DNA of 64,000 nt from a bacterium (GCA_021813505.1 JAKAKI010000038.1:651-64650); one strand, 5' to 3'. Numbered from the stretch's first letter, positions 3,828 to 63,874 are shown. Notes: generated by a model from the sequence alone, not told the origin. Translations and numbers: made by a program.

Positions 3828-4077
3828 GGCTGCCACGCAGGTAGAATCGGCATTTGCCGGTGGGGCGTCAACCAAAAAGGGGGGGGCAAAGTTGTGCAAT
3901 CCATCGACGATTTGGCCCTGAAAGGGGCATCTAATTCAGCCTAGGCCGGAGGGGCGTGTTGAAGAAGTCCCCTGAAGAGCAGCGGGAGTTGTGTAAGGGG
4001 GAGATTGCTTCGGCGCAAAGAGCCGCGCCTCGCAACGACATCTGACATGTCGTTGGCAATGCAAAGGCACTGTTGTC

Positions 4078-4122
4078 GTTGCGAGGAGCGTCTCCGCCGA
4101 AGGCGGAGGGAGCGACGAAGCA
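4078..4122. repeat. 45-bp conserved palindromic motif TTGCGAGGAGCGTCTCCGCCGAAGGCGGAGGGAGCGACGAAGCAA (copy 1 of 2 identical copies)
   Basis: Identical 45-mer recurs at 55909-55953. Core hairpin CTCCGCC-GAA-GGCGGAG. Embedded in a 470-bp hairpin-rich intergenic region (3900-4373). Confidence 0.8.
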
Positions 4123-4208
4123 ACCTCCCCCCTACGCAACTACCGCGACGTTGGGGACAAGTTCTTCAACAGGCCCCGGAAGCTTGGGTCGGTTTGCGCG
4201 AAAAGAGT

Positions 4209-9783: not shown

Positions 9784-9894
9784 GGGGGGAATATACAAAA
9801 AGGTTGAGGTCCCTGCCGCAAGTTTGGGGCGATCAGTTTGTCGGGAAATGGCGGCGCGTTGAAGTGCGGTGGCGGGATCGTTCCCGCAAGCACC

Positions 9895-9956
9895 GGTGGG
9901 CGGAGCCCACCCTACTACGAGTTTTGTGCGAGACAAGCAGGGTGGGCCGTGCCCAC
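9895..9956. repeat. two REP-like hairpins GGTGGGCGGAGCCCACCCTAC and GGGTGGGCCGTGCCCACC
   Basis: Same palindrome family as 1724-1743, 8284-8304, 63188-63252. Confidence 0.75.
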
Positions 9957-10015
9957 CTTTCTCCTCCATCGATCAGGGGCCCGCGGGTTTCTCAACACGC
10001 CCCGGAGTTCGTGGA

Positions 10016-11020: not shown

Positions 11021-11091
11021 TTATTGTGCCCTTTGAGGGCAAAACACTAGGTGCGCTCTCCTCAGGGTCCTTCCTGAAGCGGGCGGCCTTC

Positions 11092-12237: not shown

Positions 12238-12388
12238 TCCGAGGTCATTCCCGAAAGTCGTGAGAGCTGACGGGAGGGGAAGGCTCCCGCCGAGCCATTT
12301 TCCCGCGCGGTGAAGAGGATCGGCAGGAGCCTCGCCATCCCTCGAAACGCGGTCGGCAATTCAATGCAGCTCAGGGTAGTCGATTTCG

Positions 12389-30175: not shown

Positions 30176-30594
30176 AACAACTCCTTTGAAGCGATACGCT
30201 CCTGTACCTATGAATTCAGAATCACCAATCGTTGCTCTCCGAGTGGCGGACCAGGGACACGATGTTGACCTGATGGCATGCAAGATCACGCAACTTCAAC
30301 CCCGGCGAGACGGGGCTACCCTTCCGCCGCGAGTGAAAACTCAATGCCTGGACAGGATTCCCGATTCGGACCGGCGGAATCGACCGGCCCGAGGTCCCAG
30401 CATCGCGATCCCCGCATTTAGTATATCGTCATTACCGGAAAAACTGTGCGCCAATCAGTTCTGCCAATCTGCCGATACCCATTTTGTGACGAACTGAGCG
30501 GTACAATTCAGACACGACAGATATCGTTATCGGTCTTGGCGTTATGGAGCGCAGGATTCGCAGGCCGACAGTGGGGGATTTCTCCCATACAGAC

Positions 30595-36600: not shown

Positions 36601-39600
36601 GCGGGTTTCCATTCATAGGTGACACCGACCGCCGGATTGGAGATCACCGAAGCTGTCGCCAGGAGACTGTCGCAAGTCAGGTCATCTCCCGCGCAAGTCA
36701 ACACCGGCTTGGTGCGGTCGATCGTGACGAGCGCTGTGTCGTAGGCACTACAGTGAGTTTCAGGATTCGTCACCATGAGGACATAGGTACCGGCAGCGTC
36801 CACGATCGGAGAGGGGCTCGAGGCTCCCGACACGATGTGGCCACCGGAGTACGCGCTCCAGCTAAAGTTCACACCTGGAGTCGAGGAGGAGCCGTGCAAT
36901 GTGTCCAGCGTATTGGCACAGGTCAGGACCTGGTCCGCACCGGCGTTGACGTTGGGTCTGCTGATATCCCGCGTGACCAATGCTCCATCGGTCGCGGTAC
37001 AACCGTTGGCCGGATCCGTCACTGTCAGCGTGTAGGTTCCGGGGGCGTCAACCAGCGGCGAGGCCGTGGTTGAGCCGGAGACGATGTGTCCGCCATTGGA
37101 GGCCAGCCAACTGAAGGCGGCTCCCGGCGTGGTGGAGGATCCTGAGAGGTTGACTTGAGACACTTCGCAATTGAGGAACTTGTCCGGGCCGGCATTCGCA
37201 TTCGGCTTGGAAACATTGGACGTGACCAGTGCCGTGTCGAGCTTGGTGCAGCCGTTGGCGGGATTTGTCACGGTGAGGACATACGTGCCCGCGGAATCGA
37301 CCAGCGGGGTCGCAGTGCTGCCACCGGAAACTATATGGCCGCCATCGTAGGCCGCCCAACTGAAGGTGGCACTCGGAGTGCTCGATGATCCCGCAAGATT
37401 GACCTGCACCACTATGCAATTGAGAACTTTGTCCGGACCGGCATTGGCGTTGGGAGGCGCGGTATTCGCTGTGACCAGCGCGGTATCTGCCTTCGTACAG
37501 CCATTGGCCGGGTTCGTCACGGTCAGCACATAAGTTCCGGCCGCATCCACCAGAGGCGATGCGGTCGTGCCGCCGGAGACGATATGCCCACCGGCAAACG
37601 CGCCCCAACTGAATGTCGCACCGGGCGTGCTGGAGGAACCGGACAGATTGATCTGAGTCACCAGACAGGTAAGGACTTTGTCGGCACCGGCGTTGGCATT
37701 CGGCTTGGCCGTGTCCACCGTTACAAGCGCCGTATCTTTCTTCGTGCAACCATTGGCCGGATCGGTCACGGTCAGGATATAGGTTCCGGCCGCGTCGACC
37801 AGCGGGGTTGCAGTGGAGCCACCCGACACGATGTGCCCACCCGCCGCCACCGCCCAGGAGAATGTCGCCGACGGCGTGGTTGACGAACCATCGAGATTAA
37901 CCTGAGTGACAGTGCACGTGAGAACCTTGTCCGGACCCGCGTTGGCATTCGGCTTGGCCGTGTTGACGGTGACCAATGCCGTGTCCTTATCGGTACAGCT
38001 ATTGGAAGGATCGGTAACGGTCAAAACGTAGGTGCCGGCCGCATCGACTGTCGGAGTGGCGGTCGAGCCGCCGGAGACGATGTGACCGCCGCCGGTTGCC
38101 GTCCAGGAGAAGTTGATTCCGGGGGGCGTCGACGAACCCGAGAGCTGGACCTGCGACACGAGGCAAGTCAGGGCCTTGTCTGGACCAGCATTCGCAATGG
38201 TCGGGCAAATCGGGAAGGCATGATGGCCGATGGGCGCGTTGGACGGAGTCGCAACGGTATGTTCACCATCTGAGGCCGTGAAATAGTATTGAATGCTATC
38301 GCCGGAGCAAAGCAACTGACTGGCCGGCACCGTTGCGCAGAACGTGCTGTCCGTTCGCGTGGTCGCAACTGATGTGTATGATGTTGGACCATTTCGATAG
38401 AACAAGTTCACGGTCAGCGACGCGAGCGGCGTGTCTTTGTCTGTGACCCAGGCACAAAGCTGGACATTGGTCTTGGCCTTCTGGCAGATATTGTCCAGCG
38501 CAATGGTTGGCGGCGTGCGCTTGATGACCGGCGGGGCCTTTTCGCAATAATCGCCCGTGTCGCACGGTGCGCAGGTCAAATCAGCATTCTGATGGCAGAC
38601 GACAACCTGGTGGCAATCGCCGTCGGGGATTGTATCGATGCTGTTGTAGCAGATTTTGTAGCGTGTGCACAAGCGTTCCTTGATCGCGTCGTAGATCGAA
38701 TCGAGTTCCGCGCCGCTGGGGGCATGGAAGTGCGAACCACCGGATCCATTCGACAGCGAGACCAGATAGTGCGGATCAAAGTCGCTGCCCAGACTGATGG
38801 TATAGATCGGGATTCCGGCACCGAGTGCGAGACCGACGATCAGAGTCGAGTCATCGGTGAATCCGTTGTTAGGCTGGCTGCCGTTCAAGCCGTTCGGCGT
38901 GGCCGAAGTCCCGCAGTTCTGGCTTTCGTTTTCCAGACCATCGGTGAGGGCGATGACCGCCTTGCTGCCGAGTTCGGTCGTGGTCAGGCTGACGCCCTTC
39001 CAGGTGCCGTCGAAGAAGGCTGTCCTGCCGCTGGCGGACAGGCTATTAATGCCGGAGATGAGAAGCGCCGTGTCGCTGGTGAAATTCTGGACAACGGTGT
39101 AGCAGTCTGAGAACTTGACGATCGCCGTGCGATCATAGATCGACATCGCCCGCACGAACCGGCGTGCGGCATCCTTGGCTGCGGTAATCTTGCTGTTCGT
39201 GCCCATGCTGCCCGACACGTCAATCACCAGACAGGTTGACGTGCGGCACGAATCGCCGGTAAGCTCCTGAATCGTAAACTCGCTCATCCGGAAGCCGTCC
39301 TGGTAGACGCAGAAGCTATCTGCCGGGAGGTGGGGGATTGGAAGCCCGTTGGGATCGAGCACTTCAACGTAGGTGCAAATGAGCGGGAACAAACTCGCGT
39401 CGATCGACCCCAGGAAGACATCGGAGACGCCATTGACGCTTGCCGGCGAGAGAATGGAGGTGACTTTTGCCGCGGTGGTCAACGTGGGGCGTTGCTCGAC
39501 CATGTACGGGTCATCGGGCGTGCCAAGGTTGATCATCTTCTTCTCACTGGGGGCCGCGCCCAGGGCGATGACCGAAAGCGATATGGCCGCCAGGATCGCG

Positions 39601-39671
39601 CGAATGATCCATCCCAAGCGGGAGATTCCGCGCCGACCGTTCGGGGTGTACGACTTGTACAATTGCGACAT
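30651..39671 (-). CDS. giant repeat-rich cell-surface protein (3006 aa): signal anchor, VWA domain, 6 PKD-like repeats, 15 four-cysteine ~82-aa repeats, 5 PKD-like repeats, Ig-like modules, dockerin-like C-terminus
   Basis: Single ORF. ATG with GAGGAG SD. N-terminus MSQLYKSY...WIIRAILAAISLSVIALGAA. VWA/MIDAS CLVIDVSGSMG...AIVKFSD...IALTDGLEN. C-terminal ~800 codons nearly identical in nucleotide sequence to the neighbouring giant gene. Confidence 0.85.
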   Translation of the reverse strand: MSQLYKSYTPNGRRGISRLGWIIRAILAAISLSVIALGAAPSEKKMINLGTPDDPYMVEQRPTLTTAAKVTSILSPASVNGVSDVFLGSIDASLFPLICTYVEVLDPNGLPIPHLPADSFCVYQDGFRMSEFTIQELTGDSCRTSTCLVIDVSGSMGTNSKITAAKDAARRFVRAMSIYDRTAIVKFSDCYTVVQNFTSDTALLISGINSLSASGRTAFFDGTWKGVSLTTTELGSKAVIALTDGLENESQNCGTSATPNGLNGSQPNNGFTDDSTLIVGLALGAGIPIYTISLGSDFDPHYLVSLSNGSGGSHFHAPSGAELDSIYDAIKERLCTRYKICYNSIDTIPDGDCHQVVVCHQNADLTCAPCDTGDYCEKAPPVIKRTPPTIALDNICQKAKTNVQLCAWVTDKDTPLASLTVNLFYRNGPTSYTSVATTRTDSTFCATVPASQLLCSGDSIQYYFTASDGEHTVATPSNAPIGHHAFPICPTIANAGPDKALTCLVSQVQLSGSSTPPGINFSWTATGGGHIVSGGSTATPTVDAAGTYVLTVTDPSNSCTDKDTALVTVNTAKPNANAGPDKVLTCTVTQVNLDGSSTTPSATFSWAVAAGGHIVSGGSTATPLVDAAGTYILTVTDPANGCTKKDTALVTVDTAKPNANAGADKVLTCLVTQINLSGSSSTPGATFSWGAFAGGHIVSGGTTASPLVDAAGTYVLTVTNPANGCTKADTALVTANTAPPNANAGPDKVLNCIVVQVNLAGSSSTPSATFSWAAYDGGHIVSGGSTATPLVDSAGTYVLTVTNPANGCTKLDTALVTSNVSKPNANAGPDKFLNCEVSQVNLSGSSTTPGAAFSWLASNGGHIVSGSTTASPLVDAPGTYTLTVTDPANGCTATDGALVTRDISRPNVNAGADQVLTCANTLDTLHGSSSTPGVNFSWSAYSGGHIVSGASSPSPIVDAAGTYVLMVTNPETHCSAYDTALVTIDRTKPVLTCAGDDLTCDSLLATASVISNPAVGVTYEWKPAPVSGQGTAIARYDSPGSKWVIVTNPANGCVDSCEATITQNIRKPNLTCTGDTLTCNTVMASVSVSTNITEPVSYNWDPAPLSGQGSSHALYNAPGAKKVVVTILSSGCKDSCEAIVEQNAVKPVPICSGDDLTCDSLLATASVLLGGQSKSLTNISYFWTPAPVSGQGTNLARYDTPGFKKVVVTVLDSGCKDSCEAEITQHIAKPELSCHADSITCNKLQATATVQSSVVEGITYFWNPAPVSGQGTSQAVYDSPGIKWVTVTIAATGCKDSCSVDIVQDTYKPKLLCAGDELTCDSLQATASVSIVLDDAKIPPPLTFFWSPDPLSGQGTPWARYDTPGPKKVVVTYTPTGCKDSCEATITQNTRRPEISCGADTITCVHPQATAWVNSSPSEGVSYFWNPAPITGQGTTQAVYDTPGIKVVVVTILATGCKDSCLVDVQQNIYKPVLSCSGDQLTCDSLEATASVQLVSAASKIPFPFTFYWTPEPISGQGTQEARYNTPGTKWVVVTYTPSGCKDSCSAEIAQDVIKPLLSCSGDELTCDSLLASATVNLTDAQKLLVDVWGYFWSPAPISGQGTPFARYDTPGTKWVVVTYLPTGCKDSCSSVITQNIIKPSISCHGDELTCDSLLATASVSFDPSKILNGVTYLWAPEPISGQGTQWARYDAPGWKKVVVTFTATGCKDSCEANITQNTRRPEVACGADTITCAHPHATAWVNSGPSVGVSYFWDPAPLSGQGTTQAVYDTPGIKRVVVTILESGCKDTCTVDIQENLYKPQFICSGDELTCDSLLATASLQFPSAGSQAFIPFLIVWSPEPISGQGTPWARYDTPGQKKVVVTYGPTGCKDSCEATITQSIDKPFLSCSGDELTCDSLLASASVNFIEQAKNPNPAVYSYVWSPAPISGQGTPNARYDSPGTKWVVVTVLETGCKDSCSAVITQKIEKPSLSCSGDVLTCDSLQATASVTIGAPGQKTNGTVIIVWSPAPLSGQGTPFARYDTPGTKWVVVTDLASGCKDSCSAEIMQNARTPEFGCSGDELTCDSVLATASVNLPQSGKALNGFSYLWKPSPVSGQGTPFARYDTPGTKWVIITIPETGCKDSCAATITQNIFKPELQCFGDTLTCDSLQGTACVYWFDASKTSTPILSYQWRPEPVSGQGTACARYDTPGQKWAIVTFLPNGCKDSCAATIVQSNAVPNANAGTDKVLTCTVTQLNLSGSSSTPGVTFNWVASAGGHIVSGGTTATPTVDAAGTYTLTVTNPTNGCKASDVALVTLNNTPPNANAGADKILTCTATQLNLSGSSSTPGATFSWVASAGGHIVSGGSTATPLIDQPGTYTLTVTNPANGCTATDVASVTRNNTTPNADAGADKVLTCSVTQINLSGSSSTPGVTFSWVASAGGHIVSGGNTATPLVDQPGTYTLTVTNPTNGCTATDVALVTRNATTPNVSAGVDKVLNCSVTSINLSGSSTTQGVTFNWVASGGGHIVSGGTTATPLVDQAGTYTLTVTVTATGCKASDAATVTLDNTLPNADAGPDKALTCTITQIALSGASSTPGATFSWAATNGGHIVSGPTTATPIVDAAGTYTLTVTNPANGCMATDVALVTKTPNNPPVCVVPHDTSITTTTVPVTICLPVSGTDVDGDAVTCTKISGAGTLSGGQWCFTWSAPKDTSVLVGVRCRDACDSCSSQFRVTILYQSPVSPCEGNIAPECNLPHDTTIVQCIPTTVSLKLSATDANGNFKSCKIISGPGTISSRGNWNYTPYGPDTVTVTIRCTDSCGAFCEGTFTVSFVRDNLKPVCKPVLDTTVHACAEIPITIPLYANAVGMVNAYIVAGPGALADGFWVYVPTVNEDVRVTVQCQSFCGKSWKWSLTVRVRMDGNCASAIATDPSVSMPMTASAPDPCRCPAPGDIDADGQVSVSDLAVLCNVIYRVETVTTTGSCPEIQRCDVNCDGIVDRKDVDALTSYMFRQGKSLCDPCPKR

Positions 39672-40665
39672 AGCAACTCCTCAGTTGATTATGGTAAATG
39701 TCAGCTACGTTATTTCGTGGCGAATGGCAAAACGAGTTTATTGCTATGAGTTACACACGATGTCCGTGCCAGTACGGCACCTCCTGCCGCACACATCCAC
39801 TCCCCGTGGAGCGCTCGACCGGACGAGGGTATAATCTCAGAGAACCACCATCCAAACTCTTCTTGAACATGATTTGCAAGATCGCCTATTCCCCCAGTTT
39901 GTCAAGGGGTAAACGTCTGGTCGCCGAAAGATCGCAAGCCACGGGTCTTCATCCTCCACCTTCAGCCCGTGAAAGGCGATGGGACAACTCTGCTTTAGTC
40001 CCGCTTGGTCGCCCGGCCACCCACTTTTAATCTATATCGACAATCGCCGCAGAACCACTTCCTGTTCGAGATCTTATGAAAAAGTTGACAAGGTGATCGG
40101 CGTCGTCCAGACCACGATCGGTCCACGCTCTTGGCGGTAAGACTGGGAGTCTTGGCGTAAATCGGTCGACTGGAAGGCGCCTCAGGTAACTCGATGTCGG
40201 TTGATGCAATACGTGCATGGCGCGGCATAATCGCTTGAAATCCAATGTGTTATGATTACGCCTAACGACTGGTCTCGATCCGGGGTCGTCTATCACAGAG
40301 ATTCCAATGCGTCAGCGACTGATGCACCAGCGTGCATACTTTCGCGCGTCGGGCCATCCGAAGATTGAATGGAACTGATGGTCAAGTTCAAATCGTGGAG
40401 CCTTTCGACTTTGTGGCAAAACTTTGGCAAACGAGTGCGGCCTGTCGCTAATGCCCACTGCCGGTTCCGCCTGAGGTCCAATCCTCAGAATGCCACTGAG
40501 TGGTATCAATGACTTCTCCAGATGCCAACGGGACCCTGCCTTTGTTCTCAATAGCATGGCGGCTGTCCTGGCCAGATTCCGTGGAGCGCGGTGCTGCGTT
40601 CGCCGCACCATTCTCGTATAATCGCCTAAGGTGCCGGACGGGATGGCCGGCATGGCAACCGAGTA

Positions 40666-41661
40666 ATGGGTGTATGGCGGGGCGCAATGACGACTTCACA
40701 TTCTGACGAGTCCACCAACTTCCCGATCGCGGTCGAGGGCCTTTGTCATAAGTACGAAGACCGTATCGCACTGACTGACGTCAGTTTCTCGGTGGGGAGC
40801 GGGGAATTGTTTGGGATCGTCGGTCCCAATGGCGGTGGCAAGACGACCACTTTCAAGATACTGACCACCCTGCTTCGACCGACCGGGGGACGGGCTTCGG
40901 TCTGGGGTCTGGATGTCGTCGGGCAGCGCGATCAGGTTCGGCACCTAATTGGAGTGGTTTTTCAGTCGCCTGCCCTGGATGTCAAACTGACGGTTAGAGA
41001 AAACCTGCTCCACCACGGTCACCTGTATGGTCTGGCGGGGCGTGACTTGAAGACCCGGATCGACGGCTGCCTGGAGCGCCTGAGTCTGACCGACCGGTCG
41101 CGCGATCTGGTCGAAAAGCTGTCCGGAGGGTTGCGACGCCGGGTCGAATTGGCGAAAGCCCTGATGTCTCGTCCCAAAGTTCTGCTGATGGATGAGCCGA
41201 CCGCCGGCCTGGATCCGGGCGCGCGCGATACGTTCTGGAATCTGATCAATCGCATGCGGACAGAATCCGGGATGACCGTTGTGCACACGACGCATCATCT
41301 CGAGGAAGCGGAGCTTTGCGACCGGATCGCGGTATTCGACCGCGGGCGACTGGTGGGATTGGACAGTCCGGGTAAGCTACGGGCCGAGATCGCTGGCGAG
41401 GTGGTCACTCTGCGGGGTTCCGATCTGTCTGCGATCGATGAACAGCTTCGCAAGAAGCTGGGAGTAGAAACTCAATTGGCCGGTGATTGCGTTCGTGTTC
41501 TGACGGGCGACGGCCATGCATTCGCGGCAAAGGCCCGCGAAGTGTTGGGCGGGATTCTTGACAGTATCAGCATTGCGCGGCCGTCGCTGGCGGACGTATT
41601 CCGGCAGCGCAGCGGCCATGATTTCGCCGGGGAGGCCGACGTGATGGAGGCGAAGGAATGA
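40666..41661 (+). CDS. ABC transporter ATP-binding protein (ABC-2/DrrA-CcmA type)
   Basis: Walker A GPNGGGKTT, signature LSGGLRRR, Walker B LLMDEPTAGLD, H-loop. Alternative in-frame ATG at 40687. Stop overlaps the permease start (ATGA). Confidence 0.85.
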   Translation: MGVWRGAMTTSHSDESTNFPIAVEGLCHKYEDRIALTDVSFSVGSGELFGIVGPNGGGKTTTFKILTTLLRPTGGRASVWGLDVVGQRDQVRHLIGVVFQSPALDVKLTVRENLLHHGHLYGLAGRDLKTRIDGCLERLSLTDRSRDLVEKLSGGLRRRVELAKALMSRPKVLLMDEPTAGLDPGARDTFWNLINRMRTESGMTVVHTTHHLEEAELCDRIAVFDRGRLVGLDSPGKLRAEIAGEVVTLRGSDLSAIDEQLRKKLGVETQLAGDCVRVLTGDGHAFAAKAREVLGGILDSISIARPSLADVFRQRSGHDFAGEADVMEAKE

Positions 41662-42530
41662 ATCCGTTGGCGGCAGTGCCTGAACTAACTGCGGCGGCAC
41701 CACGGCCGGCGGTGCCAACCCCGTCACTGGAACTGACGCATCCACGTCCGTGGCTGGTGGTCGGGACGCTGTTGCAACGGGAGTTTGTGCGATTTATCCG
41801 CCAGCGGCATCGGGTCTTTGGCGCGCTCGGTCAACCGCTGATATTTCTGGTCTTGTTCGGTGCGGGGTTGCACGGATCGTTCCGCAATCCTCTGGTTGCC
41901 ACAGAGCACACGTACTTTGAGTATTTCTTCCCTGGGACGCTGATTCTGATCCTTCTATTCACGGCCATCTTTGCGACCATCTCGATCATTGAGGACCGGC
42001 GGGAGGGGTTCCTGCAATCGGTTCTGGTTGCCCCGGCGCCACGTTGGACTATTGCCCTGGGGAAGATGCTGGGAACCGGGTCACTGGCCGTTTCGCAGGT
42101 GATCCTGTTTATGATCATCGCCCCATTAGTCGGGATTCCATTTGACCTTTTGGGCTGGGCGGGGGCGGTCGCAGTGATGGCTGTTATCGCGCTGGCACTC
42201 ACCGGGCTGGGATTTATGCTGGCCTGGTCGATGGATTCGGCGCAGGGGTACCACGCAATCATGAATGTCGCTTTGATCCCGATGTGGCTTCTTTCGGGGG
42301 CCTTCTTCCCTGCTTCGGGTGCGACCGGGTGGATGCGCGCAATCATGTTGGGGAATCCGCTGACCTACGGGACAGCAGCCGTGCGCCACATGCTCTATTT
42401 GCATAATCCCGCGATGACAGCGGGGCTGCCGTCGCTGGCGGTCAGCCTTGGGGTAACCGCCCTCTTCGCCGCCGCAGCCTTTGCCGGGGCGGTGTGGATT
42501 ACGGGCGTCCATTTCAAAAAGCACCAGTAA
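41658..42530 (+). CDS. ABC-2 type transporter permease
   Basis: 290 aa, 6 predicted TM segments, translationally coupled to the ATPase. Confidence 0.8.
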   Translation: MNPLAAVPELTAAAPRPAVPTPSLELTHPRPWLVVGTLLQREFVRFIRQRHRVFGALGQPLIFLVLFGAGLHGSFRNPLVATEHTYFEYFFPGTLILILLFTAIFATISIIEDRREGFLQSVLVAPAPRWTIALGKMLGTGSLAVSQVILFMIIAPLVGIPFDLLGWAGAVAVMAVIALALTGLGFMLAWSMDSAQGYHAIMNVALIPMWLLSGAFFPASGATGWMRAIMLGNPLTYGTAAVRHMLYLHNPAMTAGLPSLAVSLGVTALFAAAAFAGAVWITGVHFKKHQ

Positions 42531-42640
42531 AGGCGCTCGCTCTTGCGGGTGACCGTTTCTGTATAACGCGTTGGCCGGCGACCACGACGCAGTTGTTACA
42601 AGACCGCCATAGCTGAAGTCGAGAGATTGTTAATTCAGGT

Positions 42641-42774
42641 ACCACGGACAAGGAAAGTCGAGCGGCTTTTCTGCTCGGTCTTTCTTGTCCGTGTCTTTAC
42701 TTCGGTTGTCAGAAGAAGGCACGGACAAGCGGATTCTCCAAAGAACCGGAGAATCCGCTTGTCCGTGGCACCCT
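42641..42774 (-). repeat. MITE-like 134-bp element (copy A, inverted relative to copy B) with CACGGACAAG/CTTGTCCGTG hairpin modules
   Basis: Reverse complement aligns along its whole length with 46959-47093 (about 85-90 % identity by eye). Internal perfect hairpin GCCACGGACAAGCGGATTC...GAATCCGCTTGTCCGTGGC. Confidence 0.75.
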
Positions 42775-43224
42775 GCTGGAGAACTGTGCATTTCAACAAT
42801 TCCTGCAACGTGGAAGCCAAGGTTCCCAGTTGGCCTGCAAGGGTGCCACACTCGCAAGTCTGATAGGCCGGGCAGGAGTGCCCGGCCTACCAATGTCGGA
42901 ATCTACCAGTACGCCCCACGCTTGTCAGATCGAGTTCATGCCCCAACCAGCGCCTGCGACGGGTTCCCACCGGCAAGATTCACTGTTTCAGAATTCTTCG
43001 GAAAACCGGGAATAAGACAGCGCTGAAAGTGTATTAGGGGTGTCGTAACTGGGTGCCGGGACGGCGCAGTGACCGGGTTAGTGGTCAGAATCGATGTGCC
43101 CCTTCCCCGCTCGAGCACTTGGTTGGCTCGAAGAATTCATGCACAGGTCCGGATACACTCGGGCCGGTCGTTAAATCCGTTGGGACTTCACACGGAGTGT
43201 GAAGTTGGGGAAAGGACGGTTGAC

Positions 43225-44508
43225 ATGAAGAAATTCGCCTGGCCGGCCGTAGCGCTGGTCCTCCTGTGGGCTGGCGCAACGTACGCGGGGAATCCTCCCG
43301 CGGCGAATTGGGAGTCCATTCTGGCGTCATGGTCGGCGCCCGACATCATCCTGCCCCGGGCTGCCTCGGGGGACTACTCGGTGATCGTTGAATCGAAAGA
43401 TGTTCGCGCCGGGGATTCGGCACGGATCGGCATCTACCTCAAAAATGAGCAGCCGCTCGGCTCGCTGGTGATCCCGTTGGTCATTCGGTCGATCGACCCG
43501 GGGGCGTTCTGCACTTCGGCCATCCCCTCATTTGACCACACGGCAAGGATCAATGGCTATCTCAACGGGATCTACAATGGCGAGGTCATCTGGCCAGAAA
43601 TCATCAATCCCTGGCCCGACCATCCCGGGATCGGCGCACCCAGACCGCTGGACTACCTCTCCCCTGACTTCATTCTGTTCGCGAAGGGGAGGATTCTGTC
43701 TGACAACAATCTCCCAGCGGGAGATGACGGTGTTCCCGGCTCCGGCCAACCATCAATCGTCATCGATATTGTCGCGAACACCATCGCCGGACGGTTTGAA
43801 ATCGACACGGCGATGATCGCACCGGCCAATCATATCATATTCGTGTTGGGGCAAGGTGTATCCTCAGTGGGCATCGTGCCGGAGTTCACCAGGGGAGTCA
43901 TCACGATCCTTGGCGATGACGTCGCGATCGGCACCGAGGATTCTCTCGACACAGGCAGTGCGCCGACAGACACCGCCACTACCGACCCCGCAGTCGACAC
44001 TGGCGACGCGGATTCGACAGCCGGTGAAATTACCGGAGACATCGCACCACCGGCAGAGGATTCGACTTCGAGCCAGGATACCACTTCCTCGGAGCCAGCA
44101 GAGGTGACGAGACTTATCGACAAAGGACATTTCGTGATCGCTTCGGATGAAGACAGTGGCCAGAATCCGACATCCGTTATCAAAAGCAAAGGAACGGCCG
44201 GACACTCACCGGCGACTGAAAACGCGGTAACGAAGGTGTCCCTCTGCTCGAATTTCCCGAACCCATTCAACGCCGGAACTTCGATTCGGTATGCGGTGAC
44301 TGAGCACACGACGGTTGACGTGTCGGTCTATAACCTGCTGGGACAAAAAGTAGCGACAATCGCTGAGGGTTCACGGTCACCGGGCGAGTATTTCGCAATT
44401 TGGAACGCCGCCGATGGCCATGGCAGTCAGGTGGCATCGGGTATCTACTTTTATCGCGTGCAGAGCGGCAGCCGGACGGAAGTGGGCAAAATGATGCTGA
44501 TCCGGTAG
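43225..44508 (+). CDS. secreted protein with C-terminal T9SS (Por) type-A sorting domain
   Basis: Signal peptide MKKFAWPAVALVLLWAGATYAG. Acidic Thr/Asp/Ser low-complexity linker. C-terminal ~85 aa KVSLCSNFPNPFNAGTSIRYAVTEHTTVDVSVYNLLGQKVATIAEG...SGIYFYRVQSGSRTEVGKMMLIR matches the T9SS CTD consensus. Confidence 0.8.
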   Translation: MKKFAWPAVALVLLWAGATYAGNPPAANWESILASWSAPDIILPRAASGDYSVIVESKDVRAGDSARIGIYLKNEQPLGSLVIPLVIRSIDPGAFCTSAIPSFDHTARINGYLNGIYNGEVIWPEIINPWPDHPGIGAPRPLDYLSPDFILFAKGRILSDNNLPAGDDGVPGSGQPSIVIDIVANTIAGRFEIDTAMIAPANHIIFVLGQGVSSVGIVPEFTRGVITILGDDVAIGTEDSLDTGSAPTDTATTDPAVDTGDADSTAGEITGDIAPPAEDSTSSQDTTSSEPAEVTRLIDKGHFVIASDEDSGQNPTSVIKSKGTAGHSPATENAVTKVSLCSNFPNPFNAGTSIRYAVTEHTTVDVSVYNLLGQKVATIAEGSRSPGEYFAIWNAADGHGSQVASGIYFYRVQSGSRTEVGKMMLIR

Positions 44509-44554
44509 GTGGACTTCCCAAACCTGCCTCCGGGATGGTGGGTTTGTGGCGCAG

Positions 44555-44598
44555 AAGGCGGCCTTTACTCCTCCGGGCCGCCTTTGTCTTTTTCGCTT
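44555..44598 (+). terminator. rho-independent terminator AAGGCGGCC-loop-GGCCGCCTT followed by TTTGTCTTTTTCGCTTT
   Basis: 9-bp GC stem plus T-rich tail, 47 nt after the stop of the T9SS-cargo gene. Confidence 0.6.
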
Positions 44599-44739
44599 TG
44601 ACCTCCCACAGGTGCGGCCTTGACCCTGATCACCGGGTGCAGTATGCTCTGCCCCAATGGTAACCGCCGGTGGCGGATACTCGACGATCCGGGTGTGGAT
44701 TGTGGGAATAATAGCGAAGTCGACAAAGGAGAGAGCACG

Positions 44740-46875
44740 ATGCTCCGCAGGATTGGGTCAGTTCGGCTGCCGTCGGCAGCGGCGCTTGGGGCGCTGTTGC
44801 TGGCCGGATCATCCGTCAGCTTTGGACAGGACGCCATGAGGCCGCCGGTTGCACAGATCATCCCCAAAATCGATACGGTCAACGGCGACGTCCGCACCGA
44901 CAACTATTTCTGGCTGCGCGAGAAGACGAGTCCCGAGGTGATCAATTACCTCGAAGCCGAAAACGCGTACACCGAAAGTGTGTTGAAACACACGGAAGCG
45001 TTGCAGAAGACGCTCTATGATGAAATGCTCTCCCGCATCAAGGAAACGGACCTGGATGTGCCGGAGAAGAACGGGGATTACTATTACTACACGCGCACGG
45101 AAGAAGGAAAGCAGTATCCGATCCGCTGCCGCAAGCAGGGCAGCCTGGATGCGCCGGAGGAGGTCCTGCTCGATCCCAATGCCCTCGGGCAGGGGCACAA
45201 GTTCTTCGATATCGGCGTGTTCAAGGTCAGCGACGATCATACCATGCTGGCCTATTCCGTCGATACGACCGGCTCTGAGGAATACACTCTGTACTTCAAA
45301 GATCTCCGGAACAATGCCACATTCAAGGATGAGCTTCGCAACACGTCGACCGGAGTGGAGTGGGCCGCCGACAATCGAACGGTCTTCTACAACACGCTCG
45401 ACTCCGCAAAGCGTCCGTACAAGCTCTTCCGCCACATGCTGGGCGCCAGCCAGAAGAATGATGTCCTGATCTATCATGAGGCCGACGAGGCGTACTTTCT
45501 CGACGTATCGAAGACCCGCAGCCATGCGTATCTGTTGATCACGCTGGAGAGCCAGACAACATCCGAGGTGCGCTATCTGGCGGCGGACAACCCAAAGGGG
45601 GAATTCAAAGTCCTTCAGCCGCGCAAACACGAGATGGAGTACCACGTCGATCATCACGGCGACGATTTTTACATCGTGACCAACGACCGGGCACGCAATT
45701 TCCGATTGATGAAGGCGCCCGTGGCCGATCCCGGGATGGCGAATTGGAGCGAAGTGATCGCGGGACGGGATGCGGTGAAGCTCGACGACATCGATGCCTT
45801 CGCGGATCATCTGGTGGTCTATGAGCGTGAGGGCGGACTCAAGAAGATCCGCATCCGCAGTTTCAACTCAAACGAAGACTTCTACGTGGATTTCGCGGAG
45901 CCGGTGTACACGTACTCGCCCGCGCGGAATCCCGAATTCAATACGAATCTTTTGCGGTTCACCTATACATCGCTGGTGACACCGCGGTCGGTGTACGACT
46001 ACGACATGACGGCCAAGACACGCGAGCTGAAAAAGCAGTACAAGGTTCTCGGCGGATACGATCCGTCGAAATACACGTCCGAACGCATCTTCGCCAAGGC
46101 CCCGGATGGCACGGGGGTGCCGATCTCACTCGTGTACAAGAAGGGCATGAAGCGCGACGGGTCCAATCCGCTCTTGCTTTACGGCTACGGTGCCTACGGC
46201 ATCAGCTCCGATCCGAACTTTTCGTCCAACCGGCTCAGCCTTCTGGACCGCGGTTTCATCTACGCCATCGCCCATATCCGCGGCGGCGGTGAGATGGGGC
46301 GGCCATGGTATGACGACGGCAAGCTGTTGCACAAGAAGAACACGTTCACCGACTTCATCGCCTGCGCCGAGCATCTGATCGACGAGAAATACACATCGAC
46401 ACCGAAGCTGGTCATCAATGGCGGCAGCGCCGGCGGTCTGCTGATGGGTGCCGTGGTGACCATGCGGCCCGATCTGTTCGGAGTCGTGGTGGCGAAAGTG
46501 CCGTTTGTCGACGTGGTCAACACCATGCTCGACGAGTCGATCCCTCTGACCGTGATCGAGTTTGAGGAATGGGGCAATCCCAAAGAGAAGAAGTTCTACA
46601 ATTACATGAAGTCGTACTCCCCGTACGACAATGTCACGGCGAAGCCATACCCGACAATGTTGATCACCGCCGGGTTGAACGACCCGCGCGTGGGGTATTG
46701 GGAACCCGCCAAGTTCACTGCGAAGTTGCGCACCATGAAACAAGACGACAATCTCCTCCTCTTGAAAGTCAACATGGGCGCGGGCCACGGCGGGTCATCG
46801 GGGCGGTATGACTACCTGAAAGAGATCGCGCTGGATTACGCGTTTATCCTCGATCGGCTGGGATTGGCGAAGTAG
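44740..46875 (+). CDS. ptrB: S9A prolyl oligopeptidase family, oligopeptidase B (protease II)-like, with signal peptide
   Basis: ATG with AAAGGAGAGAG SD. Signal MLRRIGSVRLPSAAALGALLLAGSSVSFG. Beta-propeller N-domain; catalytic GGSAGGLLMGAV serine motif plus downstream Asp/His region (NDPRVGYWEPAKF...GAGHGG). Confidence 0.85.
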   Translation: MLRRIGSVRLPSAAALGALLLAGSSVSFGQDAMRPPVAQIIPKIDTVNGDVRTDNYFWLREKTSPEVINYLEAENAYTESVLKHTEALQKTLYDEMLSRIKETDLDVPEKNGDYYYYTRTEEGKQYPIRCRKQGSLDAPEEVLLDPNALGQGHKFFDIGVFKVSDDHTMLAYSVDTTGSEEYTLYFKDLRNNATFKDELRNTSTGVEWAADNRTVFYNTLDSAKRPYKLFRHMLGASQKNDVLIYHEADEAYFLDVSKTRSHAYLLITLESQTTSEVRYLAADNPKGEFKVLQPRKHEMEYHVDHHGDDFYIVTNDRARNFRLMKAPVADPGMANWSEVIAGRDAVKLDDIDAFADHLVVYEREGGLKKIRIRSFNSNEDFYVDFAEPVYTYSPARNPEFNTNLLRFTYTSLVTPRSVYDYDMTAKTRELKKQYKVLGGYDPSKYTSERIFAKAPDGTGVPISLVYKKGMKRDGSNPLLLYGYGAYGISSDPNFSSNRLSLLDRGFIYAIAHIRGGGEMGRPWYDDGKLLHKKNTFTDFIACAEHLIDEKYTSTPKLVINGGSAGGLLMGAVVTMRPDLFGVVVAKVPFVDVVNTMLDESIPLTVIEFEEWGNPKEKKFYNYMKSYSPYDNVTAKPYPTMLITAGLNDPRVGYWEPAKFTAKLRTMKQDDNLLLLKVNMGAGHGGSSGRYDYLKEIALDYAFILDRLGLAK

Positions 46876-46958
46876 GACGCGCGGGTGGCAAGGTCATCCT
46901 GCACGCGCGTCGATGCCCAACCAGATAGGAACTGCTAAGCAACCAAGCTCACCATCGG

Positions 46959-47093
46959 GGTGCCACGGACAAGCAGATTCACCGGCCCTTTGGAGAATCT
47001 GCTTGTCCGTGCCTTCTATACAGAAGCAGAAGAAAGACACGGACAAGAAAGACCGAGCAAAGAACCACTCGATCTTCCTTGTCCGTGGCACCC
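46959..47093 (+). repeat. MITE-like 135-bp element (copy B) with perfect 15-bp terminal inverted repeats GGTGCCACGGACAAG...CTTGTCCGTGGCACC
   Basis: Terminal inverted repeats and two internal hairpins read directly. Lies between the convergent ptrB and gltS-like genes. Confidence 0.75.
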
Positions 47094-47290
47094 GAATGGT
47101 CGGGCATTCACCTGATCGGTCGGGTATTCCAGCACGCCCGATTGCTTGGGCACCCGCATGGGCAAGATTCCCATGTTACCAACGAATTAAAAATACCGAT
47201 GGCGGGTACGTTGGACCCGCCATCACTGCGTCCCTCTCGGAGACTGGGCCGATTACAATCAGTCCCCGCCGGGATATCGAAGACCGATGA

Positions 47291-48946
47291 TCAGTTCGGC
47301 CGCACTGGCATCGCAGATCCCGCCGACTTGGGATCGCCCAACTGCGATTTGCCCCGGTGGCCGTTGCCGCCGAAGATCTGGTCGACGGCCTCTTTATCGA
47401 CGTCCATGATGTACGGGATGCCACTGACCTTGGCGGCTTCCGGTGTGAGGGCAGCAAGGTCGTCGCGCGACATATACTCGAGAGCAAAGCGGCGGCTGCC
47501 GGCCATGAGCTGGCGCAGGCCCTGAGCGAGACGTTCGTAGTACGTGTACAGCCCGATCGCTCCGGGCGGGAGGCGGTCGAACGCGTCATCGCCAAGTTCC
47601 TTGCGCAGATCGCTCGCCGTAACGAAGATCTGATCGATCGTATCACCGAACCGTTCGACGTAGACAGGCAGTTGCTGATCTCGAATCGCCTGGCCGATGG
47701 TCTTGCCGACCATCGCGGCAGCAATTGGGGAGCGGGCCATGCCGACCAGCTTCACGAATGGAGCGCCCATTGCCAAACCCTTGAATATCTGATCTTCAAA
47801 CGTGAATCCGCCAGCAACCGCGAGAGTCGGAACGTGCTGTCCTGCCGCTTGCAGACGGGTGGCATACTGGTGAAGCAGCGAATGCAGCTCCAGCGGTGGG
47901 ACACCCCATTCATTCATCATCCGCCACGGGCTCATCCCGGTTCCGCCACCGGCACCATCGACGGTCAGCAGATCGATACCATAGCGGGAGGAGAAGACAA
48001 TGGCGCGGGCCAGATCGACCGGCCGATAGGCGCCGGTCTTGAGGAAGATGTACTTGGCGCCGATCTTGCGGAGGTTTTCGACCGCCTGCGCGAACGCATC
48101 CTCGGTCACCATGCCGACACGCGAGTGGCGTTCGAATTCCTTGAAGGCGCCGTGCTCGAAGGCCCGGATGACATTCGGGTCGGTGGGATTCGGCATGACG
48201 ATGTAACCGCGTTCGTAGAGCATCTGCGCTTTCTTCAAGTTCCGGATCTTGACCTCGCCACCGATGTCTTTGGCGCCCTGTCCCCACTTCATCTCCACGC
48301 ATTCGACACCCAGCTTTTCGATGGCGTATTGGTGTACGCCGAGCCGGGTGTCTTCGATATTGGACTGGACGATGATGGCGCCGTAACCGTCGCGCTGATG
48401 ATCTTTGAAGAGATTGACGCGGCGCTTGAGGTCGACCGTGTCAATGACCCGGCCGTCGCGGATAATCGATTCCACGTCCATCCCGGCAACGTTCTCGCCA
48501 ATCGTCAATCCGGTTCCCGCGAGCGCGGAGCCGATGGCCAGGCCCTCCCAATTGTTCTTGGCGATGTCGGTCGAGCCGATGCCGGGAATGATCCAGGGAT
48601 AGCGGAACTTGAGCTTCTTGTCATGTCCAAAGCGGACCTCGAGACTGACCGCCGGGAAGATGGCCTTGTCGGAATCGGCCGCCACACCGAATGCGCCGGC
48701 CGCGGTGCCCATGATGTTGAGGTGCGAATAATCGAGCGGGTAGTCCTTCTCGGCCGCGGTCGTGATGACGCCGAACGGCTGGGGATAGATCACCTCGTGC
48801 CCCCGGAAGGCCGATTTCCCGATTTCGCACATGCCGATACACCCGTCGACGCAGGTCACGCACATTCCCGAGGTGTGCACGATCGAACCTTCGGTCCGGT
48901 TCTTCGTCAGGGTTGCTGCCGACGTATTGATTCTGGACAGTGACAT
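47291..48946 (-). CDS. archaeal-type glutamate synthase large-subunit homolog (FMN-binding GltS domain 2 with N-terminal Cys-rich Fe-S region)
   Basis: 551 aa from ATG (MSLSRINT) with AAAGGAG SD. Cys cluster CVTCVDGCIGMCEIG. TIM-barrel GltS_FMN hallmarks (LKTGAYRPVDLARAI, DGAGGGTGMSPWRMMNEWGVP, VAGGFTFEDQIFKGLAMGA). Confidence 0.75.
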   Translation of the reverse strand: MSLSRINTSAATLTKNRTEGSIVHTSGMCVTCVDGCIGMCEIGKSAFRGHEVIYPQPFGVITTAAEKDYPLDYSHLNIMGTAAGAFGVAADSDKAIFPAVSLEVRFGHDKKLKFRYPWIIPGIGSTDIAKNNWEGLAIGSALAGTGLTIGENVAGMDVESIIRDGRVIDTVDLKRRVNLFKDHQRDGYGAIIVQSNIEDTRLGVHQYAIEKLGVECVEMKWGQGAKDIGGEVKIRNLKKAQMLYERGYIVMPNPTDPNVIRAFEHGAFKEFERHSRVGMVTEDAFAQAVENLRKIGAKYIFLKTGAYRPVDLARAIVFSSRYGIDLLTVDGAGGGTGMSPWRMMNEWGVPPLELHSLLHQYATRLQAAGQHVPTLAVAGGFTFEDQIFKGLAMGAPFVKLVGMARSPIAAAMVGKTIGQAIRDQQLPVYVERFGDTIDQIFVTASDLRKELGDDAFDRLPPGAIGLYTYYERLAQGLRQLMAGSRRFALEYMSRDDLAALTPEAAKVSGIPYIMDVDKEAVDQIFGGNGHRGKSQLGDPKSAGSAMPVRPN

Positions 48947-49030
48947 CTTACTCGCTCCTTTCAACCGTCAATGATTTCATCATCATAGCCTATGCGATCA
49001 TTCCCGTGTGGCATGCGTGGCCGGACGGCC

Positions 49031-49708
49031 TCAGTCTTTCTTGATCTCGCAAGCGACACACGGTGTCATGTAACACATCATATCATCGAACTGCGGCTTG
49101 TCGACGCAGGGCGGCTCCAGATTACCGCAACCGCCGCAGATCGCCTTCTCCGGCTGGTTATAGGTGCAACGAAGCTGGCAGGCCGGGCAGACGTAGATAC
49201 ATCCACCGCAGAGACGGCAGACTTCGGATTTGGCATCGAACGGCGTGCCGAGGCTGCGATGCTCGCCACGGCCACGGAAACCGATCGCGTGGGCCATCAT
49301 CTGTTCGGAACACATGCGCAGGCACAGCCCGCAGAGAATGCAATCCTCGTGTTCCTGCCGGAAACGCTGCTGCCGTACGCCATGCTCGGAGGCGAGATCC
49401 TGAATGACCTTCGATTGCGGGCAGGTGGCGAGCAGCAATTCGATCACCATCTTGCGTGCCTTGACTACACGCGCCGAGGAGGTGCGTACAATCAGACCCG
49501 CTTCGGCCGGATAGGTGCAGGAGCTGACGAGCCGCGACTTGGGGCTCTCGCCAATCTCCACAACACACAACCGGCAGGCGCCGTACGGCGATAGGCCCTC
49601 CATGTGGCAGAGCGTGGGAATCGGAAAGCCGAGAAACTTGGCGGCTTCGAGGACGGTTGTCCCTTCCTCTACGGTGACATTCAATCCGTTAATCTTCAGA
49701 GTGATCAC
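49031..49708 (-). CDS. 2Fe-2S / 4Fe-4S ferredoxin-domain protein (NuoG N-terminal / HndD-BfuA-like fragment)
   Basis: GTG start with GGAGGGAG SD. VITLKINGLNVTVEEGTTVLEAAKFLGFPIPTLCH (2Fe-2S fold) followed by His-ligated and CxxCxxCxxxCP 4Fe-4S motifs. Start overlaps the stop of the upstream gene (GTGA). Confidence 0.75.
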   Translation of the reverse strand: MITLKINGLNVTVEEGTTVLEAAKFLGFPIPTLCHMEGLSPYGACRLCVVEIGESPKSRLVSSCTYPAEAGLIVRTSSARVVKARKMVIELLLATCPQSKVIQDLASEHGVRQQRFRQEHEDCILCGLCLRMCSEQMMAHAIGFRGRGEHRSLGTPFDAKSEVCRLCGGCIYVCPACQLRCTYNQPEKAICGGCGNLEPPCVDKPQFDDMMCYMTPCVACEIKKD

Positions 49709-62970: not shown

Positions 62971-63110
62971 TTCCGCGAAGTTGTTTGAGAGGTAATGACG
63001 GACCGGCCGAATCGCATTGCGCCAGTCACAAAAGTGAAGCGAATTGCGGTGTGCGTGAGTTGCACAGAGAGCAGCGCGAGAGCAATGTCCGTGCCGGGAT
63101 GAATCGCGAC

Positions 63111-63303
63111 GGTAGCATGGGTAGCATGGGCATCCTGCCCATGCAGTTCCGGCGGCAGGGCGTGTTGACTACATCGCACCAGAACTGGTAGGGTGGGCTT
63201 TGCCCACCTATCTTCCCCGCGCGAATGGGACGGTGGGCGGAGCCCACCCTACATGCATCCGGACATACCCAAATGCATGGGCAGGATGCCCATGCTACCA
63301 TGC
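63111..63303. repeat. nested palindromic repeat cluster: GCATGGGCATCCTGCCCATGC / GTAGGGTGGGCTTTGCCCACCTA / GGTGGGCGGAGCCCACCCTAC / GCATGGGCAGGATGCCCATGC arranged symmetrically
   Basis: Direct reading. Outer arms TAGCATGGGCATCCTGCCCATGC (63122-63144) and GCATGGGCAGGATGCCCATGCTA (63275-63297) are reverse complements. Inner arms are the GGTGGGC-N3-GCCCACC hairpins. Lies between cobA stop and HD-GYP gene start. Confidence 0.8.
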
Positions 63304-63316
63304 GGTGGCACGTTCT

Positions 63317-63874
63317 CTAGTAGTCGATGCCCTTTTGGGCCAGTTCGCCCTTCTGGTAGGGGTGTTTGATCTCGCGCATCTCGGTGACCAGATCAGCGGC
63401 CTCGAGAACCTCGGGCGGCGCCCCACGTCCAGTGAGAACCAGATGCACACTTGCAGGTTTTTGCGCGATCAGTGCAAGGAGATCGTTGGCGGTCAGGAAA
63501 CCAAGCTGGCAGCCGACGAAGACCTCGTCGAGAATCACAACATGATATTTCCCGGAGACAATCTCTGTTTTGACATCCTCGAGGGCGTGGAGGGCGGCCT
63601 GCCGGTGGACCTCGCGCGGTTTCTTGTCATCGACGATTCCGACAAACCCCTCCCCTCTTTGGCGGAGTTCGACATAAGGCTCGAGGCGTTTGATGCCATC
63701 CAGTTCGCCGTAATGCCATGATCCCTTGATGAACTGCCAGATGAGGGTTCGCAGGTTATAGCCGGTGGCGCGGATGCACATGCCGAGTGCCGCGGTAGTC
63801 TTGCCTTTGCCGTCGCCGGTGTAGCAGATCACGAGGCCTTTGCGGACTTGGATTTTCGGTGGGTCGAGTTGCAT
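63317..63874 (-). CDS. cobA: cob(I)yrinic acid a,c-diamide / cob(I)alamin adenosyltransferase (CobA/CobO/BtuR family)
   Basis: P-loop CYTGDGKGKTTAALG. Family motifs LDEVFVGCQLGFL, VLTGRGAPPEVLEAADLVTEMREIKHPY. Start at internal ATG MQLDPPKIQVRKG. Confidence 0.85.
   Translation of the reverse strand: MQLDPPKIQVRKGLVICYTGDGKGKTTAALGMCIRATGYNLRTLIWQFIKGSWHYGELDGIKRLEPYVELRQRGEGFVGIVDDKKPREVHRQAALHALEDVKTEIVSGKYHVVILDEVFVGCQLGFLTANDLLALIAQKPASVHLVLTGRGAPPEVLEAADLVTEMREIKHPYQKGELAQKGIDY

Follow-up and report, generated by a model that had tools for sequence, protein, structure and literature searches.

The window analysed here is a stretch of 64,000 nucleotides (nt) from a bacterium of the uncultured phylum Zixibacteria (GCA_021813505.1, JAKAKI010000038.1:651-64650), with positions counted from its first letter. 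Two double-hairpin elements, termed copies A and B, lie within it in inverted orientation at 42638-42772 and 46959-47092, are about 86 % identical, and bracket two genes on the plus strand. Specifically, these genes code for a secreted protein of 427 aa with a C-terminal sorting domain of the type IX secretion system (T9SS; 43225..44508, gene call in L088, Pfam Por_Secre_tail/FlgD_ig) and for an S9 oligopeptidase B of 711 aa (44740..46875, assigned by Pfam). On the same strand, an ABC ATPase (40666-41661) lies upstream of copy A and an ABC-2 permease (41658-42530) directly precedes it, while a convergent glutamate-synthase-like gene on the minus strand (from 47291) lies beyond copy B and has a terminator of its own at 47197..47225 (minus strand), a canonical hairpin with a T-run that is kept in the related loci L102 and L103. 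By Pfam, the neighbours in the window are ABC transporter, peptidase and redox enzymes. An earlier interpretation, the sequence-only reading, took the inverted pair for the borders of a composite mobile or invertible unit of 4.2 kb. The evidence collected here favours a different reading, to which a probability of about 0.7 is given, namely that A and B go back to separate, old insertions of a miniature element of ~206-214 bp that is specific to Zixibacteria, and that neither copy moves any longer.

The two cores are built from the same parts, as resolved by sequence reading together with inverted-repeat and fold analysis. Copy A, on the plus strand, comprises a head GGTAC, hairpin 1 (42643-42693), a spacer hairpin (42694-42719), hairpin 2 (42720-42767) and a head GCACC; copy B, on the minus strand, presents hairpin 2 at 46964-47011, the spacer at 47012-47037 and hairpin 1 at 47038-47087. 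The hairpins measure 51/48 nt in A and 48/50 nt in B, and every stem opens with CACGGACAAG and closes with CTTGTCCGTG. The stem 10-mer CACGGACAAG occurs eight times in the window, always within A and B, against the 0.16 occurrences predicted by shuffles, and a literature search for it returned unrelated primer sequences only. Between A and the reverse complement of B, 118 of 137 positions match across the core (86 %), the longest identical run is 27 nt, and hairpin 2 shows one compensatory difference (CGG/CCG against CAG/CTG). Both copies fold on both strands with z scores of -9.6 to -11 relative to shuffles, and the open reading frames (ORFs) inside them are spurious and overlap the palindromes. 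The sequence-only reading had described two inverted copies of ~135 bp at 85-90 % identity and perfect 15-bp inverted repeats in copy B, and both descriptions hold: the core ends of B (GGTGCCACGGACAAG at 46959-46973 and its reverse complement CTTGTCCGTGGCACC at 47078-47092) have no mismatch. In copy A the right core end is perfect and the left one, GGTACCACGGACAAG, has a single mismatch; the copy had been correctly recognised at 42641-42774, with a start that had to be moved 3 nt to the left. The stretch TGGCACGGACAAGC was considered as a sigma-54 promoter and discarded by eye, as its -12 GC is displaced by one base and the head in Zixibacteria reads TGCCAC.

The same element is repeated in related genomes. 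A scan of species-representative genomes with the hairpin pattern CACGGACAAG-N15-45-CTTGTCCGTG located the 51 + 48-nt double hairpin at at least 12 loci in JACRMA01, a metagenome-assembled genome (MAG) of Candidatus Zixiibacteriota, and at at least seven loci, as double or single hairpins, in a second such MAG, JAGVEK01; the copy count suggested by the sequence-only reading is therefore positive. Over 3 kb of synteny, the window is ~74-82 % identical in nucleotides to JAGVEK01 and, by this comparison, its species is a third, related one beside JACRMA01 and JAGVEK01. All the family copies considered (21/21) are intergenic, and at least 18 are found within ~110 nt of the 3' end of a gene. Both orientations relative to the upstream gene occur (9 versus 4), and intact members often occupy the loop of a pre-existing hairpin that follows a gene.

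An alignment of 17 copies with their flanks, including 15 family members from JACRMA01 and JAGVEK01, shows that the core of ~135-137 bp sits within a longer unit of ~206-214 bp. Conservation across the family extends beyond the core for ~45 nt on the side of hairpin 1 and ~30 nt on that of hairpin 2. From left to right, the consensus consists of an outer repeat GGCGTGTTGAAAAACC, a subterminal small hairpin around CCATCGATCAAG, GGGTGCC and hairpin 1, followed by the spacer hairpin TCTTTCTT…AAGAAGA, hairpin 2, GGCACCC and the inverted outer repeat …GGTTTTTCAACACGCC. In intact members the outer terminal inverted repeat (TIR) is the 16-nt GGCGTGTTGAAAAACC, and three JACRMA01 copies measure exactly 212 bp each from end to end. 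Because these conserved flanks and outer repeats extend beyond the core, the 15-nt repeats that had been taken for the termini are internal; the idea of an element like a miniature inverted-repeat transposable element (MITE) or of REP type (repetitive extragenic palindromic), mobilised in trans, was right in kind, and its boundaries and TIRs had been misplaced. On this alignment, the whole copy A spans 42590..42803 (~214 bp) with hairpin 1 first on the plus strand, 59 nt past the stop of the ABC-2 permease (42530) and ~420 nt ahead of the start of the T9SS-protein gene. Its left arm (42590..42637, plus strand) holds a decayed outer TIR, CAGTTGTTACAAGACC against the consensus GGCGTGTTGAAAAACC, and a remnant of the subterminal small hairpin, and its right arm (42773..42803, plus strand) ends in a decayed outer TIR, …TTTCAACAATTCC against …TTTTCAACACGCC; identity to the family consensus is 0.67 in the left arm, 0.88 in the core and 0.73 in the right arm. 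Copy B spans 46928..47138 (~211 bp) with hairpin 1 first on the minus strand, 52 nt past the stop of oligopeptidase B (46875) and ahead of the terminator of the convergent gene, and is identical to the consensus at 0.73 and 0.58 in the arms and 0.90 in the core. Compared with each other, the arms of A and B are 48 % and 62 % identical and the cores 86 %, and the same imbalance runs through the family, in which cores are 0.86-0.98 identical to the consensus and arms 0.13-0.96.

By several independent signs, the outer repeats of this unit behave as transposon ends. Eight elements from three genomes have both outer repeats in recognisable form, and in six of them exact direct repeats of 6-7 nt abut the element (TATCCTG, CCCCCGG, CTGGCG, CTCTTG, TCTGCG and CCGCAG), as expected of target-site duplications (TSDs); a seventh, at 3953-4175 in the window, is flanked by CCGGAGG/CCGGAAG, a match of 6/7. 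As a null, the left flank of one element was paired with the right flank of another, and never agreed over more than 4 nt. In four of the seven empty sites that were reconstructed, the TSD coincides with the loop of a perfect hairpin that was already there, a preference for hairpin loops that fits the nested, mosaic look of Zixibacteria intergenic regions. Moreover, the identical pair of 16-mers encloses unrelated palindromic interiors (L015 508-636, L033 1591-1707, and 3953-4175 and 9853-10001 in the window), and the copy in L010, although internally deleted, still has its two outer ends and a TSD of 7 nt. In the fetched sequence, 1.1 Mb in all, the outer TIR is confined to Zixibacteria loci, save for one unpaired match with two mismatches in L174; viral contigs scanned for this TIR and for the 15-mer yielded single matches at chance level and a few short REP hairpins, with no REP-associated tyrosine transposase (RAYT). 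The window element at 3953..4175 (223 bp, no strand assigned) has outer TIRs GGCGTGTTGAAGAAGT/GGCCTGTTGAAGAACT around a different, long-palindrome interior and was probably inserted later than A and B, because six of the seven TSD positions are still present. A third window element with an outer TIR, at 9853..10001 (149 bp, no strand assigned), lies between selA and a PIG-L deacetylase gene; its right end, GGCGTGTTGAGAAACC, has one mismatch, GGTGGGC…GCCCACC REP hairpins are found inside it, and it shows no recognisable TSD.

The interior has a different affinity. It is a head-out pair of two different hairpins, GGGTGCC-hairpin 1-spacer-hairpin 2-GGCACCC, in which the head GG(G)TGCC stands ahead of every outer stem and is invariant in 11-12 of 12 copies, and the spacer is structured and 26 nt long. 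Since this architecture and its sequence match the REPs that flank RAYT genes, the core is, on present sequence evidence, a heterodimer of head-out REPs that resembles a REPIN as PMC3116915 uses the term, and the 'REP-type elements' offered as an alternative by the sequence-only reading come closest to describing it. The hairpin motif is also multi-copy in MAGs of Planctomycetota, Phycisphaerae and Deltaproteobacteria, and the Deltaproteobacteria MAG JACRCP01 holds plain doublets, GGGTGCC-hairpin…hairpin-GGCACCC, with nothing conserved outside the heads and no outer arms. RAYT genes were searched for in the window and in the fetched loci with an E. coli YafM sequence, the RAYTs of L020 and L140 and an HUH…Y regular expression, and L020 alone scored. 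Its 181-aa ORF matches Pfam Y1_Tnp at 30.5 bits (cut-off 23), has GGTGGCACGGACAA(A/G) hairpin arrays on both sides, and counts among its homologues proteins named 'REP-associated tyrosine transposase' by their sources. Three diverged homologues (Brocadia, Phycisphaerae, Myxococcales) are flanked by GGGTGGCA-headed hairpins with different stems, and ~33 of 120 RAYT homologue gene calls extend into translated REPs, with terminal peptides such as GTDK, HGQ and LSVP; the homologues P0291 and P0309, whose termini resembled translated REPs, were set aside, as their contigs are without such a motif.

A metagenome scan with the RAYT alignment yielded 80 loci, 56 of which have GGTG[GC]CA heads within 600 nt; in total 158 such heads lie near these loci, against ~19 expected for uniform composition, and CACGGACAA is present in eight of the 80. 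The closest correspondence is found in L140, where the RAYT is bracketed by one REP per side, GGTGCCACGGACAAGctctgCTTGTCCGTG and CACGGACAAGcagagCTTGTCCGTGGCACC (GGTGCCACGGACAAG…CTTGTCCGTG and CACGGACAAG…CTTGTCCGTGGCACC), matching the 15-mer ends of the core in the window exactly; the named relatives of this RAYT belong to Phycisphaerae and Planctomycetota. RAYTs, which are IS200-like Y1 transposases, were seen with matching REPs at their sides in other phyla (L020, L140, L108 and L134); those beside an identical head and stem base lie in contigs resembling Planctomycetota and Deltaproteobacteria. When a hidden Markov model (HMM) of the family was run against 90 RAYT loci, no Zixibacteria-type element was found beside a RAYT, and the matches were weak (the short REPs of L140 at E 3e-4 and 7e-4, and one in L108 at E 0.0098). 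In a separate JGI metagenome contig, L184, two equal-length IS110-family transposase genes (95-1204 and 8439-9548) stand beside a RAYT homologue (10001-10717), and the CACGGACAA motif was not found there.

The resemblance of the core to RAYT-flanking REPs raises the possibility that the family is a pure REPIN, a REP doublet moved solely by a RAYT whose gene lies at another place in the genome, with the outer palindrome as a preferred target or a hitch-hiker. The head-out doublet, the identity of its head and stem base to those of RAYT-flanking REPs and the better conservation of the core than of the arms all agree with this, and REP dimers within fixed longer palindromes are known, as in Halothiobacillus neapolitanus (GGGaaGCTT-GAAAaACC…; PMC3733652). 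Nevertheless, the exact 6-7-nt duplications adjoin the outer repeats and not the REP heads, identical outer repeats surround unrelated interiors, the deleted L010 copy keeps both ends and its 7-nt TSD, and no RAYT turned up in the Zixibacteria sequences examined. Transposition of the IS200/IS605 type by Y1 enzymes is not known to generate duplications. A pure REPIN is accordingly considered rather unlikely.

The core has also been preserved in a way that the arms have not. Twelve full cores yield a consensus fold in the shape of a four-way junction, made up of a closing stem of 8 bp, hairpin 1 of 19 bp, a spacer hairpin of 8 bp and hairpin 2 of 17 bp, with 96.9 % of its cells paired. In six of the pairs both partners have changed, where shuffles give 2.1 ± 1.1 such pairs and none of 500 attains the observed number. 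Because the core was kept at 86 % with compensatory changes in its stems while the arms decayed, the pattern suggests that it is still under constraint after its carrier lost its ends, or that it is being homogenised. One possible source of constraint would be a function for the host, with the hairpins serving as bidirectional transcript-end structures (which would end transcription or shield the 3' ends of mRNA) or as protein-binding sites. Elements placed just downstream of stop codons, conservation of the core in place with compensatory changes as the arms decay, and outer hairpins that, read from outside inward, precede a pyrimidine- or T-rich tract are all in keeping with such a role; a terminator scan flags several of them, including hairpin 2 of A and hairpin 1 of B on the minus strand, with CT-rich tails. 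On the other hand, the convergent gene beside copy B already has its canonical, conserved terminator, relatives carry other repeats or none at the same sites, and the T-tracts are weak. A host function would, moreover, leave the TIRs, the TSDs and the copy number unexplained, and it is compatible with a mobile origin rather than an alternative to it; it is retained as a possible but doubtful account.

The very stable fold and the partial covariation could also be thought to mark a structured small-RNA gene present in two copies. However, an Rfam search of 42000-47700 gave nothing near threshold, the best overlap being BTnc231 with 20 bits against a gathering score of 80.4 (E = 0.99). Both strands of the element fold equally, and the wobble asymmetry, ~11 versus 8 cells after exclusion of loop-edge pairs, gives no clear strand bias. 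The copies occur in both orientations to neighbouring genes, which is evidence against a strand-specific RNA gene, and the TIRs and TSDs point to mobility at the level of DNA, so that a small-RNA gene is hardly credible.

The inverted geometry of A and B is what a composite transposon or an invertible cassette that moves or flips the 4.2-kb segment would produce, and their 27-nt identical run could in principle allow rare homologous inversion. The checks on duplications and synteny that had been proposed with this idea turned out against it. No TSD is present around either copy or around the A..B pair, whose flanks ACCACGACG and CGATTGCTT have CG alone in common. Across 40001-49500, six independent assemblies of the species align collinearly to the window at 99.9-100 %, free of indels and inversions, and oligopeptidase B is identical in GCA_027457265.1, GCA_027457245.1 and four other assemblies. 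No recombinase or transposase lies nearby, and the absence of a transposase from the window ORFs had been correctly noted at the outset; the GC content shows no step across the bracketed segment, and the outer TIRs are decayed in both copies. The relatives speak in the same sense. No trace of the element was detected in the L101, L102 and L103 loci (nhmmer, E ≤ 1), in which oligopeptidase B has amino-acid identities of 74 %, 77 % and 84 %, respectively, and keeps its place and orientation. L101 keeps the order and orientation ABC transporter, T9SS protein, oligopeptidase B; L102 has oligopeptidase B convergent with the glutamate-synthase-like gene, as in the window; and L103 keeps a convergent downstream gene, the product of which has no Pfam record. 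Since element-free relatives keep the neighbourhood and orientation, the T9SS-protein and oligopeptidase B genes are, by this comparison, ancestral residents, and the insertions of A and B are separate events. A mobile or invertible cassette is thus very improbable, and the removal of this false lead leaves two ordinary resident genes that are neither mobile nor phase-variable.

The same relatives show what else can occupy these intergenic positions. L102 and L103 share the terminator hairpin GATGGCGGGT…ACCCGCCATC (47197-47225 in the window), unlike copy B. At the site of copy B, REP-like hairpins are found in L103 (2475-2775, with GGTGCCCCACCCTTCGGGTGGGGCACC) and in L102 (3100-3400, with a GTAGGGGCGCGGCTTGCCGTGCCC doublet). 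As different REP-like hairpins fill the same intergenic position in relatives, the site of copy B is, judging by these loci, a hot spot for palindromic repeats. Upstream of oligopeptidase B, L102 contains at 100-970 an apparent broken ABC-ATPase gene (Walker A GPNGGSKTT) in place of the T9SS-protein gene, which would therefore be variably present in the lineage.

Returning to A and B as old, independent and immobile copies of a Zixibacteria miniature element, the whole element would have been spread by a transposase acting in trans with staggered cuts, and its REP-dimer core would be a captured REPIN-like module. That core may be constrained in place as the substrate of a RAYT located elsewhere in the genome or by a host-level role, e.g., as hairpins at transcript ends. 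That the two copies bracket the genes for the T9SS protein and oligopeptidase B would then be a by-product of two insertions in neighbouring intergenic regions. Several observations weigh against this reading. The TSD sample, with its eight elements from three genomes, is small. Neither A (G) nor B (GAT) has a TSD, their TIRs are decayed, and their membership of the TIR/TSD family rests on arms that are 58-73 % identical to the consensus. No pair of outer TIRs spaced 0.7-3 kb apart, as an autonomous element would have, was present in the Zixibacteria loci checked, and neither the Pfam-scanned ORFs of the window nor 19 Zixibacteria loci gave a hit to a RAYT or any other transposase; since none was found, both trans-acting enzymes are hypothetical for the window lineage. 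Gene conversion among copies could, instead of constraint, account for the conservation of the core. Lastly, for similarly embedded dimers the outer palindrome has been taken as a possible target and not as a terminus (PMC3733652 section 7).

A more specific version of the proposal is advanced tentatively. According to it, the family would be a chimeric non-autonomous element that joins a lineage-specific, hairpin-loop-targeting TIR/TSD chassis to a REPIN core carrying a 15-16-nt module, GGGTG(C/G)CACGGACAAG, common to three phyla (Zixibacteria, Planctomycetota and Deltaproteobacteria). A RAYT/REP pair or a conserved hairpin-binding host factor would have spread or persisted across phyla, and the core would have been selected after the death of the chassis; this extension is a possibility that we favour less than its alternatives taken together.

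Other repeats populate the window. In the same intergenic region as copy A and 58 nt to its right, a GTAG-headed REP hairpin, GGTAGGCCGGGCA-CTCC-TGCCCGGCC, occupies 42861..42892 on the minus strand (inverted repeat I18), and a lone GGTGCCAC head is present at 42842-42849. At 63111-63299, a palindromic element of ~180 bp has 29-nt ends, GGTAGCATGGGCATCCTGCCCATGCAGTT, that are 97 % complementary, and its interior contains an internal GGGCGTGTTGAC as well as REP hairpins of the form GTAGGGTGGGC…GCCCACC; by appearance it belongs to a second family of REP doublets, headed GGTAGCA. At the syntenic position, JAGVEK01 (L067) has a spacer that is ~230 bp shorter, and in the comparison of 62900-63400 with L067 the intergenic part is too diverged to define insertion boundaries. 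A further palindromic family, unrelated in sequence to A and B, is represented at 10835-11040 and 4176-4228 by GCCCCGAAGGGGC/GCCCTTTCAGGGC hairpins with 45-nt arms that are 82 % complementary. Short intergenic repeats at 8156-8217 and 12264-12344 are 80-96 % shared with the JACRMA01 loci L025, L044, L059 and L076 and, being common to several loci, would represent further dispersed families; the repeat at 8082-8217 lies between selB and selA. Two giant ORFs on the minus strand, 21866-30289 (2807 aa) and 30651-39671 (3006 aa), are built of tandem domain repeats of ~249 bp, some of which are 98-100 % identical between and within both genes.

The family documents, in the uncultured phylum Zixibacteria, a repeat system of REP/MITE type in which a REP dimer appears to ride in a miniature TIR/TSD element that prefers hairpin loops, and it offers an explanation for the contig breaks and mosaic intergenic regions of Zixibacteria genome bins. 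The REP head and stem base of this element match those adjoining RAYT genes in unrelated phyla. If complete genomes confirm it, the system would lend itself to the study of two questions, how recognition modules of the REP/RAYT kind pass from one lineage to another and whether selection keeps REP cores after the death of their carrier.

Among known systems, the core most resembles the REPINs and REP doublets associated with RAYTs in P. fluorescens SBW25 and the bacterial interspersed mosaic elements (BIMEs) of E. coli (PMC3116915, PMC3337134), with which it shares an inverted, head-out hairpin pair with a structured spacer, a short 5' head (GGTGCC/GGTGGC in the window family, GTAG/GTGG in REPINs), and an extragenic, multi-copy distribution of doublets better conserved than their surroundings. 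It differs from them in that no RAYT was found in the window lineage (the window and 19 Zixibacteria loci), its two hairpins form a fixed heterodimer, and the doublet sits inside a unit with TIRs of 16 nt and TSDs of 6-7 nt, neither of which is a described feature of REPINs. Moreover, its 15-mer head and stem base are common to three phyla. REP sequences are usually lineage-specific.

The whole unit is comparable to the bacterial MITEs (Correia/NEMIS, ERIC, RUP and Nezha), which are likewise non-coding, 100-300 bp long, multi-copy and intergenic, have TIRs and TSDs, form strong hairpins beside genes and are mobilised in trans. In contrast to MITEs, however, the interior and not the TIR is the best-conserved part of the window family, this interior, a REP dimer, belongs to a type linked with a different transposase class (Y1/HUH), and no parent insertion sequence (IS) is assigned. 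Insertion at palindrome apices also recalls IS1397/ISKpn1 and members of the IS110 family such as ISPpu9, which target REPs or hairpin loops; these are autonomous elements with their own transposase, and their TSDs are of different length or absent.

Lastly, REP dimers are regularly found within longer palindromes in H. neapolitanus (CGTC-1) and Anabaena variabilis (GTAG-15) (Di Nocera et al. 2013, PMC3733652 section 7), where the association was left uninvestigated and no duplications were reported. The H. neapolitanus consensus GGGaaGCTT-GAAAaACC…GGTaTTTCgAAGC-gCCC resembles the Zixibacteria GGGGCGTGTTGAAAAACC…GGTTTTTCAACACGCCCC. Unlike in those embedded dimers, the outer palindrome of the Zixibacteria family behaves like a transposon end, as its TSDs, its exchange of interiors and its deletion derivative indicate, its insertions prefer hairpin loops, and its REP head and stem base are identical in three phyla.

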